Assembly (NCBI GenBank): GCA_045119815.1
Contig: JBGVEC010000005.1
Coordinates: forward strand, 12,642 to 76,641
Length of the DNA: 64,000 nt
Direction of reading: 5' to 3'
Source of the DNA: Paludibacteraceae bacterium
GTDB taxonomy: Bacteria > Bacteroidota > Bacteroidia > Bacteroidales > Paludibacteraceae
Shown: positions 11,402-55,946 of the stretch, piece by piece
How the letters are laid out: each line of letters begins with the position of its first letter
Position numbering within the stretch: position 1 is the stretch's first letter
Translations under genes and position numbers: made by a program
The notes under the pieces: model-generated
The model's input: the letters and a program-made list of their open reading frames with translations, nothing else
Told to the model about the DNA's origin: nothing
Databases searched by the model: none

Positions 11402-12646
<1,245 letters not shown>

Positions 12647-18420: not shown

Positions 18421-19962
18421 ATGTCAAAAGTTCGTGTTCGTTTTGCTCCTAGCCCAACAGGCGCATTGCACATTGGCGGTGTACGTACTGCCTTGTTTAA
18501 CTACTTGTTTGCTCGCCAACATGGTGGCGATATGTTGCTTCGTATAGAAGATACTGACTCCACACGCTTCGTGCCTGGAGCCGAAGAATATATTACCGAG
18601 TCCCTAGCATGGCTCGGCATTGAGATTGACGAAGGTATCTGCCAAGATGCACCTAACGGCAAGGGCGATCATGGTCCATACCGCCAAAGTGAGCGTCGTG
18701 AAATCTACCACCAATATGTAGATCAGCTCCTCGCTTCGGGCAATGCCTATATCGCATTCGACACCCCTGAGCAACTCGAAGCAAAGCGTGCGGAGATCGC
18801 CAATTTCCAATACGATGCCCGCACCCGCGAGCAGATGGTCAATTCTCTCACACTCAGCCCAGAGGAAGTACAAGCCCGCATTGCTGCTGGAGAGAAGTAT
18901 GTGGTTCGCTTCAAGGTAGAGCCAAATATTGATGTACATGTCCACGACCTTATCCGTGGCGAAGTGGTCATCAACTCCAATATTCTTGACGACAAGGTGC
19001 TCTATAAGTCAGCCGATGACCTGCCTACCTACCATCTTGCCAACATCGTGGATGACCACTTGATGGAGATCAGCCATGTCATTCGTGGTGAAGAGTGGCT
19101 GCCTTCTGCCCCACTCCATGTGCTCTTATATAAGGCGTTTGGTTGGGAAGACACTATGCCTGAGTTCGCTCACTTGCCACTCTTGCTCAAGCCAGATGGC
19201 AATGGTAAGCTTTCTAAGCGCGATGGTGACCGCTTGGGATTCCCTGTATTCCCACTCGAGTTCCACAACCAGAAGGATGGGTCTGTATCATCGGGTTACC
19301 GCGAAGAGGGTTATTACCCAGAGGCGGTCATCAACTTCCTCGCACTTCTTGGTTGGCACGCTACGGGCGACCAAGAGATGTACTCGATGCAAGAACTCAT
19401 CGAGCAATTCTCGCTGGAGCGCGTGAGCAAGTCAGGCGCTAAGTTCGACTACGAAAAAGGCAAATGGTTCAACCACCAATACCTCCAACTCCGTAGCAAC
19501 GAAGAATTGGCCGAGCAGTTTATGCCTATTCTCGCCTCTCGCCTTTCGCCTAATAGCCTAATAGCCTTATCGCCTGACGTAGTCGCGAAAGTGATCGGCC
19601 TCACCAAAGACCGCGTGAATTTCGTTTCCGAACTCTGGGAGCAAGTCAATTTCTTCTTTGTGGCTCCTGAGGAGTACGACGAGAAGTCGCTTAAGAAGCG
19701 TTGGAAAGAGGATTCTCCAAAGCATATGACTGAGATGCTTGCTTTGCTGGAGGCACACGAGGATTGGTCTGCAGAGGGTTTAGATAACTTGATCATGCCA
19801 TGGATTGCAGAGAAGGAGTACGGCGTAGGTATTGTGATGAATGCCTTCCGTATCTGTTTGGTTGGTGCTGCTCGTGGTCCACACATCTGGAATATCACCG
19901 ATATCCTTGGCAAAGAAGAGACCCTCAAACGTGTAAGAACAGCATTGGAGAAACTCGCTTAA
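18421..19962 (+). CDS. gltX: Glutamate--tRNA ligase
   Basis: HIGH-type motif ([10 protein letters not shown]) and KLSKR (KMSKS-type). Confidence 0.95.
19531..19574 (-). repeat. Composite GGCTATT/GGCGAAA/GGCGAGA heptamer block in inverted orientation, in frame in gltX
   Basis: ctcgcctctcgcctttcgcctaatagcctaatagccttatcgcc. Its reverse complement is ggcgataaggctattaggctattaggcgaaaggcgagaggcgag. Translated [14 protein letters not shown]. Confidence 0.9.
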
Positions 19963-30389: not shown

Positions 30390-30441
30390 GCTCGCAAGCG
30401 AGCGGTGTATAGTGTAGAGTGTAAGGTGTAAAGGCGGGGGG
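30390..30441 (+). repeat. GCTCGCAAGCGAGC hairpin plus GTGTAKA heptamer array
   Basis: gctcgcaagcgagc ggtgtata gtgtaga gtgtaag gtgtaaa ggcgggggg. Confidence 0.85.
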
Positions 30442-30473: not shown

Positions 30474-32021
30474 TTAATTTCCTATTACAATCCATTTACC
30501 TCGTTTAGTTGATCCTTCTCTTCTGATCAATCCCTTTTCACGTAGAGACGTCATATAGCGTTGTATAGAGCGAAGACTTAACTTCAATTCTTGCGAAATT
30601 AACATAGCTGTAACCGAAGGATTGCTACGCATCATATTCAGAATCACAGACTCCTCTTTACCAATGGTTGATTCAACATTTCTTACGTCACTTCTTACGT
30701 CATTTCTTACGTCACTTCTTACGTCATTTCTTACGTCATTTCTTACGTCATTTCTTACGTCATTTGGATCATTATTTGGATCTTTATTTGGATCAGTTTC
30801 GCTTTTATTGCGCCAAATCACCACCCTAAAATCCTCTTCTTGGTGGAACTCTGGTGTTTGCAAACCATAATCATGGCACTTTGTGATAATATCCTCTGTA
30901 CCCGTACCCACTTTCTCTATATAGCCATTCCAATACATTGGATCAGCAAGCAGGGGATTAGTCGGTAAAGACTTATGTGGTCCATGCAACTTTTGCACCG
31001 TCAGTCCATAGGGCAATGCACCTGGATTCCACACCTCTAATCTATCACGGAACAACATCACCTGCACACTGGCATTGCTGGTATAATCTCTATGGCATAC
31101 CGCATTGACAATCGCCTCCTTAACTGCATCCATTGGCAACTCTGGGCGCGTAGGAACATCTGCCGTCTCGCCTTCAGAGCGAGTCCCTACCCAATTATCC
31201 ACACGGCTCATCACGAAGCTCGTGGCTTGATCCACTAACTCAAACACATCGCCTCGATATATCTGATACGATGGCATTGGCTTTTCCACTACCGTGCCAT
31301 AAAACTGCACGCATTTCACCTCTGAAGTAATAAAGTACTTCTGCGGTTTCTTGCCAAACAACAATATCGCTGCATTTGCCAATCGTCCTTGCTCATCAAT
31401 CAAATCCAAATGCGTGAGCAATTTCTCAGGAGCTGTATCCAACGGAAGAGGGAAATTGCGTTTGGAGCGAGCCATATAAATGAAGTTCTTCATCTTCTCC
31501 TCGTCCAAGTCAGCTAGTGTAGCGCCATTATCATTGGACGCATCAAATGGACGCCAGCGAATATACTCCTTCTCCTCCAAATAGCGTATCAACGATGCAT
31601 ATACCGAGGTACGCAATCCCTCCATATCCACAAACGTCTTGCGCACAATCTCCTGCTCTACCTTATGTATCAAAGCCGTCTCTTTTGGGTGTCTCTCCTG
31701 CTCGTTGAGGGACTTAATAAAAATCAAACGACTCTTATGCAGTGATGCAGCCAAATCATATTCACGTTCTGTAGGCGATATGCCCTCTGCATCTTCGTTG
31801 CCATACAAATTACCAAACAATCCTAAATAGATATCGCAGAGTTCTACTTCTCGTAAATAAACATGAGTGGCTGAATACTCATTAGCAGGAACCTCCTCGA
31901 AGATGAAGGGCTCGAAGAACTTGCCCAACAGCGCATCTGTTCGGATGTACTGACAAAGCATTTCGCGTTCTTGAGCGAATTCGCTTTGTACACTACTGAT
32001 GAATATTTTTATACGTTTCAT
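30474..32021 (-). CDS. DUF4062 + AlbA_2 (Schlafen-like) + HATPase_c_4 + wHTH protein; putative nucleic-acid-binding regulator or defence-type protein
   Basis: KIFISSVQSEFAQEREML...CDIYLGLFGNLYG (DUF4062), ...ANAAILLFGKKPQKYF (AlbA_2), ...AIVNAVCHRDY...LEVWNPG (HATPase_c_4), C-terminal MarR-like wHTH. Confidence 0.7.
   Translation of the reverse strand: MKRIKIFISSVQSEFAQEREMLCQYIRTDALLGKFFEPFIFEEVPANEYSATHVYLREVELCDIYLGLFGNLYGNEDAEGISPTEREYDLAASLHKSRLIFIKSLNEQERHPKETALIHKVEQEIVRKTFVDMEGLRTSVYASLIRYLEEKEYIRWRPFDASNDNGATLADLDEEKMKNFIYMARSKRNFPLPLDTAPEKLLTHLDLIDEQGRLANAAILLFGKKPQKYFITSEVKCVQFYGTVVEKPMPSYQIYRGDVFELVDQATSFVMSRVDNWVGTRSEGETADVPTRPELPMDAVKEAIVNAVCHRDYTSNASVQVMLFRDRLEVWNPGALPYGLTVQKLHGPHKSLPTNPLLADPMYWNGYIEKVGTGTEDIITKCHDYGLQTPEFHQEEDFRVVIWRNKSETDPNKDPNNDPNDVRNDVRNDVRNDVRSDVRNDVRSDVRNVESTIGKEESVILNMMRSNPSVTAMLISQELKLSLRSIQRYMTSLREKGLIRREGSTKRGKWIVIGN
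30679..30796. repeat. 12-bp tandem repeat: 7 copies of YTTCTTACGTCA, then 2.8 copies of TTTGGATCATTA-like units
   Basis: Read directly. Encodes DPNKDPNNDPN(DVRN/DVRS)x7 between the HATPase_c_4 and wHTH domains. Confidence 0.95.
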
Positions 32022-32476: not shown

Positions 32477-34450
32477 TTACTTCACTTCCAAAACACCCTC
32501 TTTTTCGGTGAGGAAGCGGATGTAGAGGTAACCATCTTCATCTACATACTCAGCAAGAGTAGCAAACTTAGCAGCATCAATTACTGCTACACCTTCAGCA
32601 GGTACTGCCACGTACGCGTGTACGTATTTATTATAAGGAGCAACAGCAAACTCGCAAGTCTCAGCCACAAAAGTATGCAATGGTTCTGTACCATTCCATG
32701 TCAATGTAGCACCAGTAGCTACCCACTCGTTGTAGTTAATGCGATATATAGTAAATGCGCTATCAAGGTTGAGAGTCAGTTGATCGTTAGCCTTAAGCTC
32801 TATGCTATTGGCTACGCAAGGAGAGGTAGGAATAACTGGTATATCTACCAAAGTAGAAGTAACGGATAGATTACCTACACTATTCGCATTAAAGCGAAGA
32901 TACAAGTAACCATCTTCAGAAACGCGGTCCGCCCATGATTTCCATTGATCGGAAGTAATAGTCAATGTATCAGTTTTACCACTCTTAACGATAAATTGAT
33001 GATACAACACTGTACTTCCTCCAGAAGTGGCAAGCGAGCCTGAACATGTATCAAGAAGATACATCTTTAGACTTGATGAACCTTCCCAATAAAGTTGTAC
33101 ATCGTATTTTTTCCAATCATCGTAATAAATACGCCATACTGGTGTAGTATTACGACGTGGTATTTCAACATAATCTTCCGTATAAACCTCACTTGATGCC
33201 TTAGCGCATGGACAAGCATCCCAATACAAAGGAGTAACAGTCGTGGCTTTATTCGCCACAAACTTCACAAATACAAAATCACCGCTAACAGCTTCACAGA
33301 GGGTTGTTAGTTCCTTCTCAGATAGCGACAACAGCATTTCTCCACCTTGGTTTACAAAATCTTCAGTCGCAATCAATTTAGATTCAGAATTATTTGCTTC
33401 AAAGACTACATCTGTTGCAAAATACGCTTTTACAGGAGTATTAACCGATGATACGAATTGAATATTGCGCTTTTTCCAATCTATAGGGAAATAGTACACT
33501 TGTTCTGCGTCATTTGCAGTAACCTTAGCACTCTCATTCACTTCTAAACGAATCGCATCTGCCATAGGACCTGATATAGGTTGTTTCTCGACAATCAACT
33601 CTGCATCTTCAACAGACACAAAACGCACATAATAAATACCACCCTTCTCGTAAGAATTGACAAAGTCTATAATTTCCTTTTTAGACATCACATAGACATT
33701 CTCACCATTGCCAGCATCAGGTTGTAGTTCAAACATACTAATTGCAGCATTCTCTCCAGACAATGACAAATCAAATTCACAATCATCACCTATCCATACT
33801 TGTACTGGGGCAGATTTACCATTCCATACAAAACGCACACTATCATTAGCCCATTCAACCAATGGCAGTACGTAAGAGTCATTACCACTCAACAGATCTA
33901 CCTTAACATTAGAAGGTAAGGTCAACCATTCTGAACTCTCAACACAATTACGGAATGTAGCATCAGGAGTCATCGCAATATCACCTCTGCTAGATGTTAC
34001 CACTCTTACAAAAGCTTGCACATCGTACGTAATGCCAAAATTAGCCATCAACTCTCGATAGACTTCACCAACCGACAAATAATAATATTTTCTCCCATTG
34101 CTATCCTCATCTTTCTTAAAGTTATCAAAACGCATAGGTACCTTTATACCCCATCCCATTGTCTCATCTAGAAGTTCTTGGATATTAGGATCCTCATACA
34201 CTCCAGGGGTGCAAGAGAAATCTATATCTAAATACAGTTCAGTAACATTTTCATCCTCTGGATAGAAATAGCAAGTCAAAGGAAGATCGTATGTCCATGC
34301 AGTAAAATAGTATGTACCTGGAGCAGAGATAGAACCCGTATAGGTTCTATTAACAGGAATAGCTGTCTCACAAGTTAAACCATCAGGAGTTTGAGCAGAA
34401 AGTGTTAACGCAAAGGTTGCACACAAAATAACTGAAAAGAACTTTTTCAT
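32477..34450 (-). CDS. Secreted 657-aa protein built from about five copies of a ~130-aa module, hypothetical
   Basis: Signal peptide MKKFFSVILCATFALTLSAQ. Module ends recur: GGIYYVRFVSVEDAELIV, SGDFVFVKFVANKATTV, EDGYLYLRFNANSVGNLSV, EDGYLYIRFLTEKEGVLEV. Confidence 0.6.
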   Translation of the reverse strand: MKKFFSVILCATFALTLSAQTPDGLTCETAIPVNRTYTGSISAPGTYYFTAWTYDLPLTCYFYPEDENVTELYLDIDFSCTPGVYEDPNIQELLDETMGWGIKVPMRFDNFKKDEDSNGRKYYYLSVGEVYRELMANFGITYDVQAFVRVVTSSRGDIAMTPDATFRNCVESSEWLTLPSNVKVDLLSGNDSYVLPLVEWANDSVRFVWNGKSAPVQVWIGDDCEFDLSLSGENAAISMFELQPDAGNGENVYVMSKKEIIDFVNSYEKGGIYYVRFVSVEDAELIVEKQPISGPMADAIRLEVNESAKVTANDAEQVYYFPIDWKKRNIQFVSSVNTPVKAYFATDVVFEANNSESKLIATEDFVNQGGEMLLSLSEKELTTLCEAVSGDFVFVKFVANKATTVTPLYWDACPCAKASSEVYTEDYVEIPRRNTTPVWRIYYDDWKKYDVQLYWEGSSSLKMYLLDTCSGSLATSGGSTVLYHQFIVKSGKTDTLTITSDQWKSWADRVSEDGYLYLRFNANSVGNLSVTSTLVDIPVIPTSPCVANSIELKANDQLTLNLDSAFTIYRINYNEWVATGATLTWNGTEPLHTFVAETCEFAVAPYNKYVHAYVAVPAEGVAVIDAAKFATLAEYVDEDGYLYIRFLTEKEGVLEVK

Positions 34451-34462
34451 AATATAACGATT

Positions 34463-35407
34463 TTAAGAATTTACCACTTTTTGTTTTCTACGATATGCAA
34501 TATATAGTCCATAACCCAATGCCAAGAAGCACATAAACCACACACCACTTGGAATAGGGAAAGCATAGCGATCGGATTGGTCACCAAACCAAGAAAGAAA
34601 CTCCTCCCAAGTCATACCTTCAGGCAAATCACCATTGGCAATAGCAGCAAGATACATTTGGTACAATTTTGCCTTATCGAAATAATCAATTGTACCATCA
34701 GTCCAAACCCATCCATCATTTTCATTTCCAATAATGTCTTGAACCCAATTATCTAGGTTTCCTCCCATACCGGGCGCATTCTTTCTTCCACCAATACCTC
34801 TTGTAGTATTACCGATACCTGCATACGCCTGAGAAGATGCCATAGCGATATCGCCTGAAACAGAAGCCATCACATCAGTTGCAGATGAACCATTGCGATT
34901 GGTGTTATATGCATACAACGATGTACTAGGCATAGATACATTCAAACCAGAAGCAGTTACCACTGAAGAGTTAGAAGACTTAACCTGTCCACCAGACATA
35001 GACACACCACCCACATTACCGCCACCGCCAAAAGAACGGAACTCGGCGCTAGAGGTTGTATGCAACCTTTGGCTATAGGCAATTGGCGATTGGCTATAGG
35101 ACGCCGTACCGGCTATAGGCAATTGACTATTGGACACGCTCGCCGCAGGCGCGTATGAAGAAACAACACCATGGCGGAACATAGAACTAGAACCCGATGA
35201 CACAGTAGGTACAGCACCAAAATAAGAAGCAGGAGCGCCAGAAGACACCACAGAATAGGTACTGCGACGAGAAAGACTGGAACTTGAATACAAATCAGAC
35301 GGACGCCATTCATCTATCTCACGAGTCATTCGCTTCAACAATGAGAATCCGCTAATCGAACATATCAACACAATCAACCCAAATAATACATTTGATTTAA
35401 TTTTCAT
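34463..35407 (-). CDS. Membrane protein: N-terminal TM, Ser/Gly-rich region, C-terminal P-I-P-S-G + TM + RRK tail
   Basis: 314 aa. Shares DEW(R/H)PS and H..S.AEFRSFG motifs with the 181-aa gene upstream. 12-bp gap to the next gene. Confidence 0.6.
   Translation of the reverse strand: MKIKSNVLFGLIVLICSISGFSLLKRMTREIDEWRPSDLYSSSSLSRRSTYSVVSSGAPASYFGAVPTVSSGSSSMFRHGVVSSYAPAASVSNSQLPIAGTASYSQSPIAYSQRLHTTSSAEFRSFGGGGNVGGVSMSGGQVKSSNSSVVTASGLNVSMPSTSLYAYNTNRNGSSATDVMASVSGDIAMASSQAYAGIGNTTRGIGGRKNAPGMGGNLDNWVQDIIGNENDGWVWTDGTIDYFDKAKLYQMYLAAIANGDLPEGMTWEEFLSWFGDQSDRYAFPIPSGVWFMCFLALGYGLYIAYRRKQKVVNS
35071..35133 (+). repeat. GGCTATA/GGCAATT/GGCGATT heptamer block in frame in the 314-aa gene
   Basis: The 30-mer ggctataggcaattggcgattggctatagg is identical to intergenic 32068-32097. 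Translated (minus strand) SNSQLPIAGTASYSQSPIAYSQ. Confidence 0.95.
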
Positions 35408-35554
35408 AATTTTCGTAGAGGCTGCCTTTTACAGCCCGTGTTTGTTAAATATATCCTTAAAAATCGAAACTTCAACACTATTTCCCCAGCATTTATCCAC
35501 ATTTTACGCGTATTTTTTGCACCAATGCAAAGTATGCACCATACAAAAACGCTG

Positions 35555-35562
35555 CAAAATTA
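35555..35562 (-). promoter_or_regulatory. Candidate -7 box TAATTTTG
   Basis: The plus strand reads caaaatta, about 150 nt upstream of start 35407. Confidence 0.3.
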
Positions 35563-35710
35563 CAAATATTTTTTAAACCACGCAAGAAATACAACTTTTT
35601 TTATATATAAAAAGGTAAAATGTAAAACACAATTGGCAATTTGAAAAAAGGAGAAAGGAGAAATGAAAAATGAGAGGTTAGAAATGAGAGTTGAGCTTAG
35701 CCGTGTATTG

Positions 35711-35768
35711 CCCCATACATTAGTACGTATTAATTCCCCTATAAAGGGGGAATTAGTACTAATGGGGG
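35711..35768 (-). other. Long imperfect hairpin between the two paralogous membrane-protein genes
   Basis: cccc..cattagtac(gtat)taattcccc-tataaa(g)-ggggaattagtactaatg-gggg. Confidence 0.6.
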
Positions 35769-35826
35769 TAACGGCATATGCTCAAAAACCAACAAAAAAA
35801 GCAAATAAAAGCCAGAAAAACACTTA

Positions 35827-36372
35827 CTAGCGAGCCATTGGATAAAATGGCATAGAAACCATATTATCCGAAGCGTTTTTTTCTCCAGAAGATGCCTGCG
35901 GATCAAACGGCATTGGCATATACGGATAACCCATCGGCAATGGAGTAACAACCTCGTTATTCATACGCTTAAGATACTGAGGCATAGACAAATACATCAA
36001 ACCCTCCGCACCAAAAGAACGAAACTCTGCATCCGAAACCAAATGCAAGCCTCCACCAATAGGAGTGACACCAAAAGAATATAACGTAGGATTACGCTTG
36101 CCCAAAGCCGACTTAGCCATTGGCATACCCGAACGACGCTTACGCATAGCCCTACGGCGAGCTGTAACCGACTTCATAGGAACAGCCGTCTTAGCATCAA
36201 ACACCTGATCCGCAGCAGGAGGTGCAGATGTAGTGGTTGACGAACAATCGCCCACCTCATTGTATATACTGGAAGGATGCCACTCATCCTTTAACCCTTT
36301 GTTTAGCTTCAAGAAAAACCAACACAAAAAGCCTATATACACTATCGCACCTATAAACAAAAAACGTCTCAA
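35827..36372 (-). CDS. Small membrane-anchored protein, paralog of the 314-aa gene N-terminal part
   Basis: 181 aa, TTG start. N-terminal TM, KDEWHPSSIY, HLVSDAEFRSFG. Pro/Met-rich C-terminus. Confidence 0.5.
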   Translation of the reverse strand: MRRFLFIGAIVYIGFLCWFFLKLNKGLKDEWHPSSIYNEVGDCSSTTTSAPPAADQVFDAKTAVPMKSVTARRRAMRKRRSGMPMAKSALGKRNPTLYSFGVTPIGGGLHLVSDAEFRSFGAEGLMYLSMPQYLKRMNNEVVTPLPMGYPYMPMPFDPQASSGEKNASDNMVSMPFYPMAR

Positions 36373-36408
36373 CTACCTACTCTTTTACCTAATCATACAA
36401 AATCGCCG

Positions 36409-36416
36409 CAAAAGTA
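36409..36416 (-). promoter_or_regulatory. Candidate -7 box TACTTTTG for the 36372-to-32477 operon
   Basis: The plus strand reads caaaagta, about 37 nt upstream of the TTG start. Confidence 0.45.
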
Positions 36417-36462
36417 CAAAAAAAAAATGAAAACTGCAAATATAATTAAAAAAAACTGGTGC

Positions 36463-36575
36463 AGAGTGTAGGGACGAGTGAAGGAGTGAACGAATTAACG
36501 AGTGAAGGAGTGTAAGGTGTAGGGTGTAGAGCGTAGGAGTGTAAGGTGTAGAGCATAGAGGTATGTAGAAGTATG
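36463..36575 (+). repeat. ~113-nt nearly C-free tract of GTGTAGR/GAGTGAA words
   Basis: agagtgtagggacgagtgaaggagtgaacgaattaacgagtgaaggagtgtaaggtgtagggtgtagagcgtaggagtgtaaggtgtagagcatagaggtatgtagaagtatg. Confidence 0.85.
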
Positions 36576-36628
36576 CACTAATTTTACTTGATTTTAGTCA
36601 AAAATTTGTATATATGATTTTTTTTTAG

Positions 36629-36636
36629 TAATTTTG
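36629..36636 (+). promoter_or_regulatory. Candidate -7 box TAATTTTG for ftsY
   Basis: TAnnTTTG match 42 nt upstream of ATG 36678. Confidence 0.5.
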
Positions 36637-36677
36637 CAGCGCATTTAGTGTGCACATCGTAACATTAAAGAGAAATT

Positions 36678-37631
36678 ATGGCATTTTTTGGACTATTCGG
36701 AAAAGAAAAGAAGGAAACTCTAGACAAAGGACTAGAGAAAAGCAAAGAGTCTGTTTTAGGTAAAATCAGCCGTGCCATTGCCGGCAAATCGACTGTAGAT
36801 GAGGATGTTCTAGACAACCTAGAAGAAGCACTCATCACCTCTGACGTAGGTGTAGACACCACCCTACGCATCATCGAACGCATACAAGAACGCGTCAAAC
36901 GCGACAAATACCTCGGCACCGCCGAACTTAACACCATCCTCGTGGATGAAGTAGCCTCCCTACTCGCTGAAAACAATAGCACACAAGTGCTAGACTTCAG
37001 CGACGAACTGCCATGTAAACCCTACGTAATCATGGTTGTAGGCGTGAACGGTGTGGGCAAAACAACCACCATCGGCAAACTCGCTCACCAATACAAAATG
37101 GCAGGTAAGAAAGTCTATCTCGGCGCAGCCGACACCTTCCGCGCCGCTGCTGTAGAACAACTCTGCATCTGGGGAGAACGCGTGGGTGTTCCCGTCGTGA
37201 AACAACAACAAGGTTCCGACCCTGCCAGTGTGGCATTTGACACCCTACAAAGCGCCAAAGCCAACGATGCCGATGTCGTACTCATCGACACCGCAGGACG
37301 TCTACACAACAAGGTGAACCTCATGAACGAGCTTACCAAGATTAAGAACGTCATGCAAAAAGTAGTGCCCGATGCGCCACACGACGTGATGCTCGTTTTG
37401 GACGGAAGCACCGGTCAAAATGCTTTTGAGCAAGCGAAGCAGTTCACCAAAGCCACACAAGTTAGTTCATTAGCTATCACCAAGTTAGACGGTACCGCCA
37501 AAGGTGGCGTAGTGATCGGAATCAGCGACCAGTTTAAGATACCTGTGAGGTATATTGGATTGGGTGAGCAAATGACCGACCTGCAGGTGTTCAACCGCGA
37601 AGAGTTTGTGAAATCGTTGCTTAAGATGTAA
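36678..37631 (+). CDS. ftsY: Signal recognition particle receptor FtsY
   Basis: GVNGVGKTTTIGK, DTAGR, TKLDGTAKGG. Confidence 0.95.
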   Translation: MAFFGLFGKEKKETLDKGLEKSKESVLGKISRAIAGKSTVDEDVLDNLEEALITSDVGVDTTLRIIERIQERVKRDKYLGTAELNTILVDEVASLLAENNSTQVLDFSDELPCKPYVIMVVGVNGVGKTTTIGKLAHQYKMAGKKVYLGAADTFRAAAVEQLCIWGERVGVPVVKQQQGSDPASVAFDTLQSAKANDADVVLIDTAGRLHNKVNLMNELTKIKNVMQKVVPDAPHDVMLVLDGSTGQNAFEQAKQFTKATQVSSLAITKLDGTAKGGVVIGISDQFKIPVRYIGLGEQMTDLQVFNREEFVKSLLKM

Positions 37632-37703
37632 GGCGCCCAACTATACCAACTAGATAATCTAGATCAACTAGTAGTACTAGACCAACTAGCAATCGGCGCC
37701 CAA
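37632..37703. repeat. GGCGCCCAA direct repeats flanking a 9-bp-period CTAG array
   Basis: ggcgcccaa ctataccaa ctagataat ctagatcaa ctagtagta ctagaccaa ctagcaatc ggcgcccaa. Confidence 0.85.
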
Positions 37704-37711
37704 AGAATCAC

Positions 37712-39061
37712 ATGAAAATACGGTTTGTCACATTAGGATGTAAGCTCAATTTTGCAGAGAGTAGCGCAATAGGCAAAGCACTACTCCAACAAGGGCATAC
37801 CCGTGCCAAACAAGGCGAAGAAGCCGACATCTGCGTGATCAACACCTGCTCCGTCACCGACAATGCCGACCACAAAGATAGACAAACCATACATCGCATA
37901 CATCGCCAAAACCCTAACGCAATCATCATAGTAACAGGATGTTACGCACAACTACAACCTGAACAAATAGCGCAAATAGAAGGGGTAGATTATGTGCTGG
38001 GACAGAATGAGAAATATGAGATCACGCAATTAGTCGATGATATCGAGCGATTGCGTGATAGTTTAGAGGACGCTTCGCTACAGGACGCCGCAAGCGGCTA
38101 CAGTTTAGAGGCACAGAAAATTCGCGTGGCGAATATTCGCGAGGTAGAGGAGTTTCATGGTGCATACAGCAAAGACGACCGTACACGCTGCTTCCTCAAA
38201 GTACAAGACGGTTGCAACTACTTCTGCACCTATTGTACTATCCCATACGCGCGAGGCAAATCACGCAACCCTAAGATAGAAGAAGTAGTCAAAGACGCAC
38301 AAGAAGCCATCTCACAAGGAGCCAAAGAAATCATCCTAACTGGCGTCAATATAGGTGACTTCGGAAGAAGCACAGGGGAGGCTTTTATCGATTTGCTGAA
38401 GGCATTAGATAGTTTAGAGGACGGCGTTCCGCCTACAGAACGCCCTACGGGCTACAGTTTAGAGGCAAGAGACTACCGCATCCGAATTTCATCCTGCGAA
38501 CCCAACCTTTTGACAGACGAAATCATCGATTTCGTAGCCCACTCCAAGCACTTTGCTCCACACTTCCATATTCCTCTACAATCCGGTAGTAACGAGGTAC
38601 TTAGCATCATGAAACGCCGCTATACCCGCGAGCTATTTGAGGAGCGTGTAAAGCACATCAAACAGGTCATGCCACATGCCTTCATCGGCGTGGATTGTAT
38701 GGTAGGTGTACGAGGCGAAACAGAAGAGTATTTCAACGACTATGTAGAATTTATCAAGCGATTGGATGTAAGTCAGTTACATGTATTCACCTACTCCGAA
38801 AGAGCCAACACTCGTATGCTAGAGTTAGACCTGTGCATCGTCCCTAAAGCGGAACGCCAACGCCGCAGCAAGATCCTACACGAAATCTCCGAAGCGAAAA
38901 CCCAAACCTTCTACGCCAACCAAACAGGGTGTGAGGCCATCGTACTATGGGAGTCAAAGAAAGAGGGCGACCAAATGGCTGGATTCACAGAGAACTATGT
39001 CAAGGTACATCGTCCATATGACAAAGCAAAAGTAAATACTTTTGAGGTTATTAGGTTATAG
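37712..39061 (+). CDS. mtaB: MiaB-like tRNA methylthiotransferase (MtaB type)
   Basis: FVTLGCKLNFAES N-domain, radical-SAM CNYFCTYCTIPYARG, C-terminal TRAM-like part. Confidence 0.8.
   Translation: MKIRFVTLGCKLNFAESSAIGKALLQQGHTRAKQGEEADICVINTCSVTDNADHKDRQTIHRIHRQNPNAIIIVTGCYAQLQPEQIAQIEGVDYVLGQNEKYEITQLVDDIERLRDSLEDASLQDAASGYSLEAQKIRVANIREVEEFHGAYSKDDRTRCFLKVQDGCNYFCTYCTIPYARGKSRNPKIEEVVKDAQEAISQGAKEIILTGVNIGDFGRSTGEAFIDLLKALDSLEDGVPPTERPTGYSLEARDYRIRISSCEPNLLTDEIIDFVAHSKHFAPHFHIPLQSGSNEVLSIMKRRYTRELFEERVKHIKQVMPHAFIGVDCMVGVRGETEEYFNDYVEFIKRLDVSQLHVFTYSERANTRMLELDLCIVPKAERQRRSKILHEISEAKTQTFYANQTGCEAIVLWESKKEGDQMAGFTENYVKVHRPYDKAKVNTFEVIRL
38060..38111 (+). repeat. AGTTTAGAGG-flanked 52-bp element, copy 1, in frame in mtaB
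   Basis: agtttagaggacgcttcgctacaggacgccgcaagcggctacagtttagagg, translated SLEDASLQDAASGYSLE. Confidence 0.95.
38411..38465 (+). repeat. AGTTTAGAGG-flanked 55-bp element, copy 2, in frame in mtaB
   Basis: agtttagaggacggcgttccgcctacagaacgccctacgggctacagtttagagg, translated SLEDGVPPTERPTGYSLE. Confidence 0.95.
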
Positions 39062-39133
39062 GGGAGAGGCGAAAGGACGCTCGCAAGCGAGCTATAGGCT
39101 ATAGGCTATAGGCGAAAAGTTAAAGGCGAGGGA
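39062..39133 (+). repeat. Composite array directly after the mtaB stop: GGCGAAA words, GGAC-GCTCGCAAGCGAGC-TATAG hairpin unit, GCTATAG x3, GGCGA words
   Basis: gggagaggcgaaaggacgctcgcaagcgagctataggctataggctataggcgaaaagttaaaggcgaggg. Confidence 0.9.
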
Positions 39134-39205
39134 CAAAAAGGAGGTATTTTTCTTAAAAAAATACATTTTTTTATTACAGCTCTTGCATGTTTCAATAATT
39201 TTTAC

Positions 39206-39213
39206 TACCTTTG
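39206..39213 (+). promoter_or_regulatory. Candidate -7 box TACCTTTG for rho
   Basis: TAnnTTTG match 68 nt upstream of ATG 39281. Confidence 0.5.
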
Positions 39214-39280
39214 CATCGTCTTAGCGAGACTAGTTAAGATTATTCCCATTTTTTCAGATTTTTTACACAGATTTTATTAT

Positions 39281-41224
39281 ATGCAATACGACATGCAGAA
39301 ACTCGGGCGTATGACGCTCGAACAATTGACAGAGATTGCTGCTAGTTTTGGTCTCAAAGTAGGCCGAAACGCATCTTTGCAATCTATTATCTATGACATC
39401 TTAGATGCACAAGCCGACAAACGTGGCGCTGAAGTACAAGCGAAAGAAGATGCCAAACAAGCCAAAAACGAGGAGAAAAAACGTAGCAAACGCCAACGCA
39501 TTCAAAACACTCCTACCAAAGTCAACACCGACAACCTCAAGAGCAATCGCATGATTGCCACCGTAGGCAACGAACAAGACACTTTGGGGCAAATGAAAGA
39601 AGAACAAGCCAAACAACCTACTCCTAAGCCAGTAGTATCAGCCCAACAAGCTAATATTTTCAGTTTAGAGGCGAGAGGCGATAAGGCGAAAGGCGAAGAG
39701 GCGAAAGGCGTGGTCAGCGACCAAGGCGATAAGGCGAAAGGAGAGGAGGTTAAGGCCAAGAAGAAGCGCGGCAGACCAAAGAAGGAGGTAAAGAGTTTAG
39801 AGGACGCTGCGCTACAGGACGGCAGTAAAACAGCCTATAGTTTAGAGGCGAGAGGCGATAAGGCAAAAGGCGAAAGGCAAGAGGCGAAAGGAGAGGAGAA
39901 TCCTAATACACCTAAAAAATCAGCCGAGACCCCAGAGGAGAAGAAAGCGCGACTAGATGCTCGTATCGCACAAATAACCAAGCAAATTGCCAAACGCGAA
40001 GAACAACTAGCGAATGGAGAAGAAGTGACTCCCATCCAAAATCAACCCAACAATAAACCAGAAGAGGAGTTGCTAGAAAAAGGCGCAGAAGCATTTGGTA
40101 ACACCATCGTAGCCGTTGGTACACTAGAATGTGCACCAGATGGATACGGATTCTTGAGAAGCGCAGACTACAACTACATCTCTTCACCAGATGACATCTA
40201 CGTTTCCCAACAACAGATTCGACAATATGCACTCAAAACAGGCGACACCGTAGAGTGCACCATTCGTCCACCACGTGATACAGACAAGTATTTCCCTATG
40301 AAAGATGTGATACGCGTAAACGGTGTAGCACCATCCGTGGCAAAAGAGCGTATCGCATTTGAGAACCTCACCCCACTCTTCCCTGACGAGAAATTCAAAC
40401 TATGCAAAGGCGACAAGAGTGATCCACTATCTGTGAGAATCATCGATTTCTTTGCTCCTATCGGTAAAGGACAACGCGGGTTGATAGTCGCACAACCTAA
40501 AACAGGTAAAACTGTACTACTCAAACAAATAGCCAATGCTATCGCGTCTAATCACCCTGAAGTATATATGATTGTATTGCTTATTGACGAACGCCCTGAA
40601 GAAGTAACCGACATGGCTCGTTCTGTCAATGCAGAGGTGATCGCATCTACCTTTGATGAACCAGCAGAGAACCATGTGAAAGTAGCGAATATCGTACACG
40701 AGAAAGCCAAACGACTAGTCGAATGTGGACACGACGTAGTTATCCTACTCGATAGTATCACACGTCTTGCACGCGCATACAACACCGTGGCTCCTGCTAG
40801 CGGTAAAGTATTATCAGGCGGTGTGGAAGCTCAAGCATTGCATAAACCAAAACGTTTCTTTGGCGCTGCTCGTAACATTGAGAATGGCGGAAGCCTCACT
40901 ATCATCGCTACCGCATTGACCGAAACCGGTAGCAAGATGGATGACGTAATCTTTGAGGAGTTCAAGGGAACTGGTAACATGGAATTGCAACTAGATCGCA
41001 AGCTCAGCAACAAGCGTATCTTCCCAGCTGTAGATATACCTGCATCTTCTACCCGTAGAGATGATTTGCTACTACCTGCCGACGTATTAAGCCGTATGTG
41101 GATCATCCGCAAACAGCTAACCGACATGAACAGCGTGGAAGCTATGGAGAAACTCAAGACCCTCATGGAGAGAACCAATGATAATGATGAGTTTCTATTA
41201 GCAGTTCAAGGAACAAGGAACTAG
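39281..41224 (+). CDS. rho: Transcription termination factor Rho with a ~220-aa K/E-rich insertion after the Rho_N domain
   Basis: Rho_N ([14 protein letters not shown]), CSD-like GYGFLRS, P-loop [30 protein letters not shown]. Confidence 0.95.
39662..39748 (+). repeat. AGTTTAGAGG word followed by GGCGAGA/GGCGATA/GGCGAAA heptamers, in frame in rho
   Basis: Translated [29 protein letters not shown]. Confidence 0.9.
39794..39898 (+). repeat. AGTTTAGAGG-flanked 55-bp element (copy 3) plus a GGCGA heptamer tract, in frame in rho
   Basis: agtttagaggacgctgcgctacaggacggcagtaaaacagcctatagtttagagg then cgagaggcgataaggcaaaaggcgaaaggcaagaggcgaaaggagagg. Translated [35 protein letters not shown]. Confidence 0.95.
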
Positions 41225-41238
41225 TAAGACAAAAGGAT

Positions 41239-41688
41239 ATGAAGATAGTAATTATTAATGGACCGAATTTGAATCTACTGGGTAAGAGAGAGCCCGCAAT
41301 ATATGGGACTCAATCCATGGAGCAAATACTAGTGGACATACAACGTGCCCATATGGATGTGCATTTTACCTATCTTCAGTCCAACCACGAAGGCGATTTG
41401 ATAGATTGGATACAACGGTATGGGATTGAGGCAATGAGGCGAGAAGGCGATGAGGCAAAAGGCATCGTACTAAATGCAGGAGGATACACCCATACCAGTG
41501 TGGCACTCAGAGATGCGGTAGCATGCGCTAACGTACCTGTTGTAGAAGTACACATATCCGACATCTCTCAGCGAGAAGAATTTAGAAAAGTAAGCCTACT
41601 AACCGATGTGTGCAACCATAGCATCATAGGACATGGCACAAAGGGATATCAAGAAGCGGTTGAGTGGTTATTAGGAAGCCTCTCCTAA
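41239..41688 (+). CDS. aroQ: Type II 3-dehydroquinate dehydratase
   Basis: IINGPNLNLLGKREP, QSNHEGDLIDWIQ, NAGGYTHTSVALRDA, EVHISD. Confidence 0.93.
   Translation: MKIVIINGPNLNLLGKREPAIYGTQSMEQILVDIQRAHMDVHFTYLQSNHEGDLIDWIQRYGIEAMRREGDEAKGIVLNAGGYTHTSVALRDAVACANVPVVEVHISDISQREEFRKVSLLTDVCNHSIIGHGTKGYQEAVEWLLGSLS
41428..41463 (+). repeat. Degenerate GAGGCRA heptamer tract in frame in aroQ
   Basis: gaggcaatgaggcgagaaggcgatgaggcaaaaggc, translated EAMRREGDEAKG. Confidence 0.8.
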
Positions 41689-41739
41689 ATCCTCCCCTAA
41701 AGGGAAGGACTTTTAGAGGTGAGGGTTAAAGTATATAAC

Positions 41740-42498
41740 ATGAAAAATAGATTAATCAAATGTATCGTATGTAGCCTATTGCTGATAGCAACAGGCAAGA
41801 CATATGCACAAAACAATCCTTATGTAGATGACAAATTGATACATTTTGGATTCTTTTTGAGTGTAGATATGTTGTCTTATCATATCCAAGAAAATGATAG
41901 TTTGACACAAATGGGTATGCCCCACTTTGATGGCAATGTATATCACCCTCGTACCATGTCCGTAGGACCTGGTTTTAGTGTCGGATTCATTACCGACTTG
42001 CGTCTCACTCCTCATTTGAATTTGCGTTTTACCCCATCATTGAGTTTTGGTGAGCGAAGTGTAACCTACACGAGTTATACGGTACCAGATAGTTTGATTG
42101 GTTTTACCAACGTAGCTCGCAACAAGCCAAGTATGCTGACCATACCCGTATCTATCCCCGTTTACCTCAAATGGTCTGCGGAACGCGAATGGAACTATCG
42201 ACCATACGTCATCGTGGGTGGCGGTGTGCAATTCGAATGTTTTAGAGATAAAGATAAAATGCTGTTGCACAAACCTTTTGATGTGTTTGTGTCCGGAGGT
42301 TTTGGCTGTGACTTCTATTTTAGATGGTTCAAACTTTGCCCTGAGATCAAATATCAAATTGGATTCTTAGATGCACATGTACCTACTAGCAGAACAGAGG
42401 AAGAAGGTTGGGGGCTATCCGAAGGACAATACTTCTACACCGATGCCATCAAACGAGTAATCCATCAAAAAATATCCATTACATTCAACTTTGAGTAA
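41740..42498 (+). CDS. PorT-family outer-membrane beta-barrel protein (probable T9SS PorT/SprT, tentative)
   Basis: Signal peptide, DDKLIHFGFFLSVDMLSY near the N-terminus, alternating beta-strand pattern, C-terminal ..ISITFNFE. Confidence 0.5.
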   Translation: MKNRLIKCIVCSLLLIATGKTYAQNNPYVDDKLIHFGFFLSVDMLSYHIQENDSLTQMGMPHFDGNVYHPRTMSVGPGFSVGFITDLRLTPHLNLRFTPSLSFGERSVTYTSYTVPDSLIGFTNVARNKPSMLTIPVSIPVYLKWSAEREWNYRPYVIVGGGVQFECFRDKDKMLLHKPFDVFVSGGFGCDFYFRWFKLCPEIKYQIGFLDAHVPTSRTEEEGWGLSEGQYFYTDAIKRVIHQKISITFNFE

Positions 42499-45369: not shown

Positions 45370-47172
45370 ATGATTAAAGAGAGATTGGCAGCGCTACGAG
45401 CGTTGATGCAACAACATAATATTTCCGCATGTATTGTACCAGGTACAGACCCACATGCTAGTGAATACATGGCTCCTCACTGGACTGAAATGTCATGGAT
45501 AACCGGTTTCTTAGGAGAGACCGGCACCGCCGTCATCACAATGGATAAAGCCTTGTTGTGGACAGACAGCCGTTACTACCTACAAGCTCAAGCAGAGTTA
45601 CGAGGTACAACTGTAGAACTTATGCGTGAAAGCGATGTAGATTGTCCGACCATACCTGAGTGGCTGTGTAAGGCGACAGGCGAAAGGCGAGAGGCGAGAG
45701 TGGCGGTAAATCCAGAGATGTATAGTGTCAATGGTTATCGTGCATTGAAAGCAGAGTTAGAGGAAGGTGGACTGGAATTGGTATCTATAGATCTAATCTC
45801 TCCTCTATGGACAGAGAACAGACCCGCCATCCCAACATCCGTACTATATGAATACAGCGAGCAATATGCGGGCGAAAGCGTAGCGAGCAAACTGAAACGT
45901 GTGCGCCAAGCTTTGCAAGAGAAACACTGCCAAGCCCTAGTAGTCTCAGCATTGGATGAGATAGGATGGTTACTTAACATTCGAGGTAAGGATGTAGATT
46001 ACACACCTTGTTTGATTAGTTATGTGGTGGTAGAAATGGATAAATGCACCCTATTTGTTACTCCTAATAAACTCAATGATGCTGCCAAAGAATACCTCCA
46101 ACGTATACATGTTTGCGTACAGGATTACACCCACGTATTTGCATATCTACAACAATTGTCCGTAGATAGTATTATGTATGATGGCGGCAAAGTCAACGAA
46201 GCACTATACGAAGCCATAAACGCTGACGTAAAGAAAGTGAATGTCAGCCCAAGTCCCGTACTTAAGATGCAAAGTATTAAGAACGAGGTTGAACTCAACG
46301 GCGAACGCATTGCCATGCGCAAAGATGCAGTAGCACTAACCCGTTTCTTCTACTGGCTAGATAAAGAAGCATTACAGACTCCACAAACCGAAATCACATT
46401 GGCCCAAAAACTCGGAGAGTTCCGCGCTATGGGTGAAAACTACACCGATGATAGTTTCTGCACTATCGCTGGCTGGAAAGGCAACGGCGCCATCGTACAC
46501 TACCATGCAACTCCGGAGGAATGTGCCAATATTGAGGGCGAGGGTGTACTTCTTCTAGACTCAGGAGGACAATATCTAGACGGCACAACCGATATTACAC
46601 GTACTGTTTGGGTGGGTAATCCAGCCAATATCCCTGCTGCCGTTAAACGCGACTATACCGCCGTATTAAAAGGACATATCGCTTTGGCATGCGCCCGTTT
46701 CCCAAAAGGTACACGTGGTAATCAATTGGATGTATTGGCACGCCAGTTCCTTTGGGCAGAGGGTATGACATACGGTCACGGAACAGGTCATGGCGTAGGT
46801 CACTTTATGGGTTGTCACGAAGGACCACAAAACATTCGCACAGACAATAACCCTAATCCATTGCAAGTGGGTAATATCTGTTCTGATGAACCAGGATTGT
46901 ATCGAGCCAATGAATATGGTATTCGCACAGAAAACTTAATTGCTGTGCGCGAATGCAGTAATCTTGAAGCACACGCTACTGGTGAGACTTTCTACGAATT
47001 TGAGACACTCACCCTCTGCTACTATGATACCCATATGATTGACCTTACTCGCATGACTCCCCAGGAGATAGCATGGATCAATGCATACCACGAGTGGGTA
47101 TATGTAGAGACCGCACCCATGCTATCTGCAGATGAGGCAGCATGGCTAAAAGAGAAGTGCAAAGCGCTATAA
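45370..47172 (+). CDS. pepP: M24B family Xaa-Pro aminopeptidase
   Basis: Creatinase-like N-domains. HGTGHGVGHFMGCHEGP, SDEPGLY. Confidence 0.85.
   Translation: MIKERLAALRALMQQHNISACIVPGTDPHASEYMAPHWTEMSWITGFLGETGTAVITMDKALLWTDSRYYLQAQAELRGTTVELMRESDVDCPTIPEWLCKATGERREARVAVNPEMYSVNGYRALKAELEEGGLELVSIDLISPLWTENRPAIPTSVLYEYSEQYAGESVASKLKRVRQALQEKHCQALVVSALDEIGWLLNIRGKDVDYTPCLISYVVVEMDKCTLFVTPNKLNDAAKEYLQRIHVCVQDYTHVFAYLQQLSVDSIMYDGGKVNEALYEAINADVKKVNVSPSPVLKMQSIKNEVELNGERIAMRKDAVALTRFFYWLDKEALQTPQTEITLAQKLGEFRAMGENYTDDSFCTIAGWKGNGAIVHYHATPEECANIEGEGVLLLDSGGQYLDGTTDITRTVWVGNPANIPAAVKRDYTAVLKGHIALACARFPKGTRGNQLDVLARQFLWAEGMTYGHGTGHGVGHFMGCHEGPQNIRTDNNPNPLQVGNICSDEPGLYRANEYGIRTENLIAVRECSNLEAHATGETFYEFETLTLCYYDTHMIDLTRMTPQEIAWINAYHEWVYVETAPMLSADEAAWLKEKCKAL
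45670..45700 (+). repeat. GGCGAMA heptamer tract in frame in pepP
   Basis: aaggcgacaggcgaaaggcgagaggcgagag, translated KATGERREAR. Confidence 0.85.
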
Positions 47173-55582: not shown

Positions 55583-55606
55583 GTGCGCGATAGAATACGC
55601 TTGTTC

Positions 55607-55653
55607 TCCGTTATCCCTCCGTTATCCCTCCGTAGAAGATCAGTAGAAGATAG
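55607..55653. repeat. Two adjacent 11-bp tandem repeats (TCCGTTATCCC x2.5; GTAGAAGATCA x2)
   Basis: Read directly. Confidence 0.9.
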
Positions 55654-55739
55654 GGAGGTTATAAGCAGGTTGAATATAGGAGGGAGGTAGCGGAATCCTA
55701 CGGAGTTCTCCGCCACAAGGGCTCGATAACGCTTCGCTC

Positions 55740-55760
55740 TTCCTTCGGTGTTCCTTCGGT
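55740..55760. repeat. 11-bp doublet TTCCTTCGGTG x2
   Basis: Read directly. Confidence 0.85.
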
Positions 55761-55782
55761 AAAGTTACGGAAAAGATACGAC

Positions 55783-55848
55783 GAAGTTCCTATGAAGTTC
55801 CTATGAAGTCCCTATGAAGTTCCTATGAAGTTCCTATGAAGTTCCTAT
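55783..55848. repeat. 6 tandem copies of the 11-mer GAAGTTCCTAT (one copy reads GAAGTCCCTAT)
   Basis: Read directly. Confidence 0.97.
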
Positions 55849-55871
55849 AGAGACAGAGGGCAACAAGGAGG

Positions 55872-55914
55872 GGTAAGGTTAAAGGTTAGAGGCGAAAGGC
55901 GAGAGGCGAAAGGC
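55872..55914 (+). repeat. GGTAAGG/TTAAAGG/TTAGAGG then GGCGAAA/GGCGAGA/GGCGAAA heptamers, intergenic
   Basis: ggtaaggttaaaggttagaggcgaaaggcgagaggcgaaaggc. Confidence 0.9.
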
Positions 55915-55920
55915 ATAAAT

Positions 55921-55946
55921 AAAGCTGCGTTTGAAGACGCAGCTTT
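55921..55946 (-). terminator. Hairpin downstream of the GH13 gene
   Basis: aaagctgcgt-ttgaag-acgcagcttt, with A/T-rich flanks on both sides. Confidence 0.65.

Follow-up and report, generated by a model that had tools for sequence, protein, structure and literature searches.

Repetitive extragenic palindromic (REP) sequences of prokaryotes have been grouped by tag, GTAG or CGTC, into super-families (Di Nocera et al. 2013, PMC3733652); they lie mainly 3' of genes, between unidirectional or convergent open reading frames (ORFs), and at times supply the TAG stop codon (PMC3733652). Some REPs are found in frame within genes, many of them genes for repair and replication, and the Rickettsia palindromic elements (RPEs) are one case within this class of REPs and intragenic REPs, RPE-4 and RPE-6 being CGTC-tagged REPs (PMC3733652). 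Known partner enzymes of the tagged hairpins are the REP-associated tyrosine transposases, or RAYTs (Ton-Hoang et al. 2012, PMC3333891), among which subclass 2.6 is a Bacteroidetes-specific group of HUH-Y1 enzymes whose genes are flanked by weak, non-canonical, genome-recurrent hairpins (Quentin et al. 2018, PMC6006769). Another class of hairpin repeats, NTS/dRS3, goes with the Ssn single-strand nucleases of the GIY-YIG type (PMC11893778). Tandem heptanucleotide repeats, such as the TAACTGA repeats of cyanobacteria and Beggiatoa (PMC4679880), are common in bacteria (Mrazek 2007, as cited in PMC4679880). Here we analyse a stretch of 64,000 nt from a Paludibacteraceae bacterium (JBGVEC010000005.1; hereafter the window, to whose positions all window coordinates refer), in which a sequence-only reading had noticed three in-frame copies of a hairpin-bearing element, two in mtaB and one in rho. 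The copies belong to a real REP/RPE-like family of mobile or recombining repeats, and we put at slightly better than even (a probability of roughly 0.55) the reading that they are REP-like miniature palindromic units, forming unstable in-frame arrays, that are copied by a strand-specific process acting on single-stranded DNA. The literature open to our search contained no account of palindromic repeats that are REP-like or in frame in Bacteroidales, as the sequence-only reading had surmised for Bacteroidota.

The pattern AGTTTAGAGG-N32-35-AGTTTAGAGG is present three times in the window, in frame each time. Copy 1 (38060-38111, + strand), at mtaB site 1, consists of AGTTTAGAGG, two modules and AGTTTAGAGG, encodes SLEDASLQDAASGYSLE, and lies in the linker that joins the N-terminal and radical-SAM domains of MtaB. 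Copy 2 (38411-38465, +), at mtaB site 2, encodes SLEDGVPPTERPTGYSLE and lies in a loop of the radical-SAM domain, and copy 3 (39794-39848, +), again with two modules, occupies what we call site B of rho. The sequences at these three places are exactly those given by the sequence-only reading, and the SLED...YSLEA frame that it reported is indeed used by all three copies when the ORFs are read, with repeat spacings of 42, 45 and 45 bp; SLEDASLQDAASGYSLEA is one of the inserted peptide segments. The slightly wider pattern AGTTTAGAGG-N30-36-AGTTTAGAGG also has three matches in the window, compared with none in every one of 100 dinucleotide-preserving shuffles. The 10-mer AGTTTAGAGG itself has seven exact occurrences in the window, on the + strand every time and confined to 38060-39848. 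Of the two host genes, mtaB (37712-39061, +) has homologues with UPF0004 (PF00919) and Radical_SAM (PF04055) domains, one close homologue carrying the JGI name MtaB, and the product of rho (39281-41224, +) matches solved Rho structures with E = 1e-141; the rho inserts fall in an N-terminal extension (~residues 45-270) that is unaligned to E. coli-type Rho structures.

Each copy is a composite of two hairpin modules of 15-23 nt, arranged head to tail between heptamer microsatellite units (TTTAGAG); without its modules, a copy reads TTTAGAG-TTTAGAG. The proposal of a 52-55 bp element between direct repeats was therefore right as to layout, but not as to a fixed single unit: the copies are modular and belong to a mosaic of heptamers and hairpins that extends through the genome. 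On the sense strand the modules follow the grammar AG|RAC-G[stem-loop-stem]C-TAY|AG, which, in its GAC...TACAG form, becomes CT-GTAG-hairpin-CGTC on the minus strand; the stems comprise 2-6 bp, are GC-rich and open with a G-C pair, the loops are mostly of 3 nt, and there is no CCA tail. Eight modules in the window fit this grammar, all on the + strand. Copy 1 contains GAC-GCTTCGC-TACAG (38069-38083), whose core is a 7-nt mini-hairpin and the commonest in the family (36 of 289 modules), followed by GAC-GCCGCAAGCGGC-TACAG (38084-38103), and the same pair is also intergenic in another species (L018; L numbers denote comparison loci), between GGTGAAA heptamers. Copy 2 contains GAC-GGCGTTCCGCC-TACAG (38420-38438) and AAC-GCCCTACGGGC-TACAG (38439-38457), the latter with a core that is found again at unrelated loci of other species (L011, L084, L099 and L102). 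Copy 3 contains GAC-GCTGCGC-TACAG (39803-39817) and GAC-GGCAGTAAAACAGCC-TATAG (39818-39840), with one A/A mismatch in the stem where the copies at rho site A of other strains have a perfect GGCAG/CTGCC stem. Comparison of strains and loci shows that modules assort independently of one another. The sequence-only reading had overlooked the two modules outside the three copies (39076-39097 and 35100-35118), the solitary seventh AGTTTAGAGG, and the nature of the flanks, since the flanking AGTTTAGAGG repeats are units of the heptamer arrays that are spread through the window. Because the flanking 10-mer is alike at many loci (AGTTTAGAGG, GGTTATAGG and similar), it is part of the repeat system rather than a target-site duplication.

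Folded singly, the three whole copies show + strand energies that are not better than those of shuffled sequences (z = -0.13, -0.85 and +0.55), so that the case for hairpins rests on covariation at the level of the family. Perfect stems of at least 4 bp are present in 65% of the 118 distinct cores (among the matches listed plus the window), compared with 2% (maximum 6%) when the inner bases are shuffled, and these cores comprise 39 different stem arms. When 39 modules of equal length are selected solely by flanks and length, the paired fraction of cells is 95.4% vs. 65.8% in shuffles, and the covariation score is 0.686 vs. 0.142, a value reached by 0 of 500 shuffles; slid registers pair at 30-45%. 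The statistical test of covariation that the sequence-only reading had proposed thus supports the pairing, and with it the view that the differing but self-complementary internal segments reflect compensatory change. A separate comparison for d(GC-GNA-GC) mini-hairpins on the minus strand gave 77 TNC vs. 16 GNA triloops over all modules and 15 vs. 9 over distinct cores; since this signal is owed to the abundant GCTTCGC core, we do not rely on such optimisation.

Comparison of MtaB proteins supports lineage-specific insertion, rather than an ancestral peptide, at both sites of the gene. The 120 proteins that are at least 90% identical to that of the window range from 436 to 465 residues, with nearly all of the variation at the two insert sites, where 27 (site 1) and 26 (site 2) peptide variants are found. 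Looked up by exact sequence, neither the MtaB of the window nor the protein P0002 returned a record. An MtaB that is 71% identical (P0001) has short linkers and neither insert, and the solved MiaB paralogue of Bacteroides uniformis (7MJZ) aligns with 13-residue gaps at both sites. The mtaB DNA alleles of seven other strains differ by entire heptamers or entire modules, and the allele classes come with linked flanking substitutions. At site 2, L005 has the module-free allele GGTTTAGAGGCGAAAGGC (GGTTTAG-AGGCGAA-AGGC), L001 has the L005 allele plus three heptamers (21 bp), and L009 retains the first module of the window, with a different second module and additional heptamers. Site 1 contains three other hairpins in L008 and holds the site-2 element in L006, an allele that recurs in 6 of the 120 representatives. 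Identical alleles come from many independent assemblies, with 52, 41, 31 and 20 cluster representatives for single alleles. Beginning at the mtaB stop codon, an intergenic mosaic (39059-39133, +) comprises heptamers, the module GAC-GCTCGCAAGCGAGC-TATAG (39076-39097) and GGCTATA heptamers. The array 3' of the stop codon varies among strains: L007 lacks it altogether, and its opening 'AG' is, in L002 and L009, that of the TAG stop codon. The orthologous mtaB site is also represented in a related Paludibacteraceae species (L112, 665-2152), where the site-2 insert is expanded to ~50 residues and site 1 has three modules. Directly upstream of mtaB, a small PDDEXK_3 (PF13366) gene is present in L005 (1273-1716) and L008 (574-1017); the ftsY-mtaB gap of the window (37632-37711) is 80 bp long and without this gene, which looks like a strain-variable small insertion.

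Two alternative sites are occupied in rho, site A lying ~130 bp upstream of site B. The window, L001 and L002 carry the two-module element (GCTGCGC + GGCAGTAAAAC[A/T]GCC) at site B, L007, L008 and L009 carry it at site A, and L005 lacks it at both. In the window, the solitary AGTTTAGAGG (39662-39671, +) is site A in its empty state; a filled allele of this site is longer than an empty one by 45 bp exactly, with the 10-bp repeat AGTTTAGAGG at the boundaries. This is the presence/absence pattern expected from the earlier prediction of in-frame excision between the repeats, with which insertion is equally compatible. At site B, L005, L007, L008 and L009 have the degenerate relic AACGGCAGTGAAAAAACCGTTAGTTTAGAGG in place of the element, which suggests that old copies may decay to ordinary coding sequence. 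Next to the sites, rho contains a translated heptamer array of the AGGCGAA type (39669-39710, +), in which the number of units differs among strains, and a further heptamer array after copy 3 (39846-39891, +). A near-identical counterpart of the rho module pair is found in mfd of other species (L041, L045, L105 and L138), and a metagenome scan for the rho-type element returned a single match, in this already known mfd context. In the rho of an uncultured Bacteroidales (L064, 6021-6275), the two-module unit is repeated four times in tandem with a 45-nt period (DAPLQDAAKAATG...), at the position of site B of the window (after KKRGRPKK) in the N-terminal region of Rho. The aroQ loop is a fourth polymorphic site, with heptamers in the window (41427-41458, +; IEAMRREGDEAKG), a two-module element in L002 and a different heptamer array in L009.

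At these loci there is gain, loss, exchange and copying of units and of whole two-unit blocks between sites that have the heptamer AGTTTAGAG(G) in common, and the gains and losses between flanking direct repeats are precise and in multiples of 3. The intragenic copies, in frame and in sense orientation, lie in linkers, loops or disordered regions and would add short hydrophilic peptides if expressed; mtaB, rho and aroQ are consequently hypervariable in length. From the changes of position and the presence/absence of copies we infer mobility of a 'selfish' kind.

The wider search envisaged by the sequence-only reading revealed many more copies. Scanning for two tandem modules in one genome per species identified at least 117 loci, the spread being a lower bound, and the species-representative Bacteroidales loci together with the window contain at least 244 modules with at least 118 different cores. 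Most of the matches listed come from gut metagenome-assembled genomes (ruminants, horse, human) labelled 'Paludibacteraceae bacterium' or 'uncultured Bacteroidales'. The architecture of AGTTTAGAGG, two modules and AGTTTAGAGG is found at many unrelated loci, and GTTTAGAG is ~4.6-fold over-represented, 56 of its 97 occurrences adjoining a module. Outside the Bacteroidales, most matches are to genes for pentapeptide repeats or to TAGGACC arrays that are unrelated, except in Cellvibrionaceae SEMH9 and Pseudomaricurvus HS19, where the same 15-nt unit AGGACGCTTCGCTAC occurs in arrays beside long AGGTTCC heptamer runs, as inverted array pairs; the grammar of AGG-phased heptamers and mini-hairpins is thus common to different phyla. 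The gamma-proteobacterial loci (L010, L034, L043, L073, L074, L082, L086 and L100) also contain GCTGCGC and GCGTTGC cores, with ordinary-looking REPs nearby. Long heptamer arrays of the ATAGGAC(C/G) type in Thermoanaerobaculia, Acidobacteria, Syntrophorhabdus and Sedimentisphaerales (L031, L035, L038, L039, L057, L080, L094, L096, L111 and L118) are chance matches to the pattern, and show that comparable heptamer arrays are widespread. Viral contigs gave 11 matches, all of them chance matches or unrelated coding repeats, which argues that the family is not phage-borne.

We then compared the orientation of arrays to that of the genes around them, counting arrays of at least two modules among the matches listed, with both strands searched. 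In long ORFs, 38 arrays are sense and 1 is antisense, compared with a ratio of ~63:37 expected from stop codons alone (p ~8e-7). Of the 57 intergenic arrays, those between co-directional genes are 32 sense and 4 antisense, 11 are between convergent genes and 1 is between divergent genes; an intergenic array usually starts 1-46 nt past a stop codon. About 40% of multi-module arrays are intragenic. Plain heptamer arrays at the same loci are nearly neutral (12:9 and 15:11), and hence it is the tagged hairpins that carry the bias, which points towards a step that is linked to transcripts or specific to one strand. All Bacteroidales arrays among these matches run head to tail on one strand, and inverted array pairs were seen only in the gamma-proteobacterial loci. 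The DNA units are found outside coding sequence and in further reading frames (e.g., RT... and GR...) as well. GC skew in the window is too noisy for assignment of the replication strand.

In a Pfam scan of 19 host ORFs with genuine arrays, approximately half encode nucleic-acid helicases or repair ATPases: Mfd (at three positions), RecQ (two loci), UvrA, a RecD/PIF1-like helicase, VapE-like and DUF3987 proteins, and Rho. The remaining hosts are Dxs, a GH20 enzyme, a SpoIIE phosphatase, a TolC-like protein, NlpC/P60 and a 2-hydroxyacid dehydrogenase. A twentieth ORF, for a DDE transposase (in L123), was dropped as a chance match to the pattern.

The closest likeness is to REPs and to bacterial interspersed mosaic elements (BIMEs). 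Like these, the family consists of short, high-copy palindromes with fixed unpaired tags and variable but complementary stems, forms mosaic clusters with strain-variable numbers of units, is located downstream of ORFs between unidirectional or convergent genes, and has arrays that supply a TAG stop; its in-frame intragenic copies cluster in genes for helicases and repair, as has been reported in other phyla (PMC3733652). On the minus strand the modules can show both GTAG and CGTC, the tags of both REP super-families. The GTAG foot appears as CTGTAG in 5 of the 8 window modules (TACAG) and as CTATAG in 3 of the 8 (TATAG), the G of the tag being the first base of the stem; the CGTC tag arises because modules begin with RACG, which gives a minus-strand 3' end of CGTY (CGTC for GAC modules). 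Differences from REPs and BIMEs are the size of the units (15-23 nt with stems of 2-6 bp, whereas typical REPs have 20-40 nt), the embedding in heptamer microsatellites, the very high diversity of cores (118), the ~95% of multi-unit arrays in sense orientation and the ~40% that are intragenic.

The sequence-only reading had likened the copies to Rickettsia RPEs. This holds for their behaviour, as tolerated, lineage-specific hairpin repeats in frame, but not for membership of the RPE family, the nearest class being REP/BIME together with intragenic REPs. Shared with RPEs are palindromes in frame in housekeeping ORFs, apparently tolerated extra peptide and the CGTC tag; the differences are the lack of sequence similarity and another host phylum. 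RPE-1 elements are longer palindromic insertions, of about 100-150 bp. The CGTC-family REPs have a stem of 8-9 bp that opens with A-T pairs, a loop of 4-5 nt and a CCA tail (PMC3733652), rules of stem, loop and tail from which the modules described here depart. Since the features of REPs, BIMEs and RPEs (tags, location, TAG stop and in-frame copies) all recur, the family would seem to work in the way these elements do.

The modules resemble NTS/dRS3 repeats in being oriented hairpin repeats with a CGTC-containing conserved flank that cluster around genes and for which recognition as single-stranded DNA is proposed. NTS, however, is a conserved unit of 28 nt (CGTCATTCCCGCG...), whereas the stems here vary freely, and ssnA is typically flanked by its repeats, whereas no such gene was seen in the sampled loci. 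With the known heptanucleotide repeats the family shares head-to-tail 7-nt arrays, mostly intergenic and sporadic across phyla, which supply the flanks of the elements (AGTTTAG-AGG...). That definition applies to the flanks and neighbouring arrays only, the hairpin modules being heterogeneous and 15-23 nt long; the known arrays have other units and no embedded tagged hairpins, and those described here are also in frame (RibBA, GltX, AroQ and Rho). The repeats listed for RAYT subclass 2.6, e.g., GCTAG-CGCGAGCG-TCC-CGCTCGTG (PMC6006769), are dissimilar to the modules. Two further classes were considered and ruled out: miniature inverted-repeat transposable elements, given that the ends are direct rather than inverted and the flank is constant, and intrinsic (Rho-independent) terminators, given that the hairpins are followed by TAYAG and a purine-rich heptamer, never by a T-run.

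Under the reading that we favour, the units would be copied by a strand-specific process on single-stranded DNA, the likeliest agent being an enzyme, of either the RAYT (HUH-Y1) or the Ssn (GIY-YIG) type, that recognises hairpins and acts on transcribed DNA; copying might be aided by recombination or template switching at common heptamers, and selection would have purged copies that are out of frame, antisense, or within structured parts of proteins. RAYT subclass 2.6, being Bacteroidetes-specific and flanked by atypical hairpins, is a plausible partner. Several observations weigh against this reading. The window and the ~1.1 Mb of sampled loci yielded no RAYT, IS200-type or GIY-YIG gene, although sampling on this scale has little power to detect a gene with one copy per genome; the scans used regular expressions for HUH and Y motifs on six-frame translations, and tblastn with hand-written probes for GIY-YIG, IS200 and RAYT proteins. 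Among 150 small ORFs adjoining arrays, a Pfam batch scan found housekeeping and helix-turn-helix families and no enrichment of nucleases or transposases. The stems of 2-6 bp are below the length of known RAYT or Ssn substrates, approximately one third of the modules end in TATAG and so show ATAG rather than GTAG on the opposite strand, and the units are arranged head to tail, whereas REPs, BIMEs and REPINs typically form inverted pairs. The AlphaFold model of MtaB (mean pLDDT of 54, with 15 close sequences in the alignment) is too poor for placing the inserts, and translation of the inserted peptides is presumed from their reading frames. Finally, the documented moves are all between sites with at least 10 bp of identical flanks, so that ordinary gene conversion or template switching could suffice.

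The last point leads to an account that has no dedicated enzyme, in which slippage of mini- or microsatellites, unequal crossing-over, gene conversion and template switching at microhomologies generate the variation, and purifying selection filters frame and orientation. Not only does each documented exchange join sites with such flanks, but alleles differ by whole units (as do those of L001 and L005 at mtaB site 2), allele classes carry linked flanking substitutions as expected of recombining haplotypes, no enzyme candidate emerged from the sampled loci or the window, and heptanucleotide tandem repeats are a common bacterial class according to Mrazek 2007 (as cited in PMC4679880). Left unexplained, however, are the same asymmetric tags, RAC...TAYAG, on 118 different palindromes, the sense bias of module arrays compared with none in plain heptamers at the same loci, and the arrays of 15-nt units and heptamers in Cellvibrionaceae, and we think it rather unlikely that recombination alone suffices. 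We judge unlikely, if a little less so than what follows, a more far-reaching form of the reading that we favour: that the modules are footprints of an insertion system which would write head-to-tail hairpins, strand-specifically and from single-stranded DNA, 3' of ...TA(N)AG heptamer ends into transcribed regions, ORFs included. They would then constitute a third REP super-family with both GTAG and CGTC tags and an enzyme of its own, common to gut Bacteroidales (Paludibacteraceae) and marine Cellvibrionaceae, and a regular source of disordered or linker peptide in essential proteins.

It is quite improbable that the modules are primarily functional hairpins of sense-strand mRNA (for 3'-end stability, termination or protein binding) with the intragenic copies as by-products. 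Such a role would fit the sense orientation, the position 1-46 nt past stop codons, the avoidance of divergent (promoter) regions (1 vs. 11 convergent arrays, among the matches listed), the RNA-like covariation of the stems, and the view that REPs act as RNA elements in other bacteria (PMC3733652). It makes no sense for the ~40% of multi-module arrays that are within coding regions, and the number and identity of modules are free to vary between near-identical strains, the array after mtaB even being dispensable in L007; there is no T-run for intrinsic termination, whole-element folding energies are no better than those of shuffles, and Rfam gave no family match at E <= 1 for positions 34000-42000 of the window. 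The chance that the segments are ancestral or selected linker peptides with secondary similarity at the DNA level, or else assembly artefacts, is very small indeed. The peptides are hydrophilic and use one frame in all three window copies, as expected of selected linkers, but the inserts are missing from more distant orthologues and paralogues, the DNA units are also present outside coding sequence and in different frames, and dozens of alleles are found inside one species; the recovery of the same alleles in up to 52 cluster representatives from independent assemblies argues against artefacts.

These observations extend the phenomenon of palindromic repeats inside genes, known from REPs and RPEs, to abundant gut Bacteroidales, where the repeats make essential proteins (MtaB, Rho, AroQ, Mfd, RecQ and UvrA) differ widely in length among strains. 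The two-site polymorphism of rho, with its exact 45-bp presence/absence, offers a tractable system for the movement of REP-like units, and the sharp difference between sense-biased hairpin arrays and unbiased heptamer arrays points to a testable, transcription-linked step. The insert sites are natural markers for strain typing and reveal protein loops that tolerate insertions; they also cause pitfalls for annotation and assembly of metagenome-assembled genomes.

Outside mtaB, rho and aroQ, the window is rich in arrays with a 7-bp period (AGGCGAA, GTTGAGA, GTGTAGA, GTTTAGA, GGCTATA and others, identified with TRF), both intergenic and in genes. In-frame heptamer arrays are found in housekeeping genes, in either orientation to the gene (11997-12035, 16820-16876, 19530-19575, 2303-2353 and 45671-45700, in addition to the array at 41427-41458), the hosts of these arrays being RibBA, a DUF4831 protein, GltX, an S8 peptidase, an Xaa-Pro peptidase and AroQ. 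The RibBA array corresponds to an inter-domain linker, and that of GltX to the junction of the catalytic and anticodon-binding domains. The remaining module of the window, GAC-GCCGTACCGGC-TATAG (35100-35118), is single and lies among GGCTATA and GGCAATT heptamers (35067-35140, +), antisense within a conserved hypothetical gene on the minus strand (34463-35407), with a local fold of z = -5.0. The product of this gene is serine-rich and conserved (575 homologues, no Pfam domain, 281-322 aa across strains), and the antisense module and heptamers are translated in it as ...SQLPIAGTASYSQSPIAYSQ... The palindrome GCTCGCAAGCGAGC occurs twice in the window, at 39079-39092, within the module 3' of mtaB, and at 30390-30403, where it has no RAC/TAY tags and lies next to GTGTAGA-type heptamers, between minus-strand genes. 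Intergenic arrays with an 11-bp period (55590-55930 and 2267-2296) contain CTCCGTTATCC, CTTCGGTCTTC and six units of GAAGTTCCTAT, and continue into AGGCGAA heptamers, CTCCGTTATCC being found again 53 kb away. A tandem repeat with a 12-bp period (30677-30795), made up of 7.4 units of CATTTCTTACGT followed by 2.8 units of ATTTGGATCATT, lies inside a minus-strand ORF (30474-32021).

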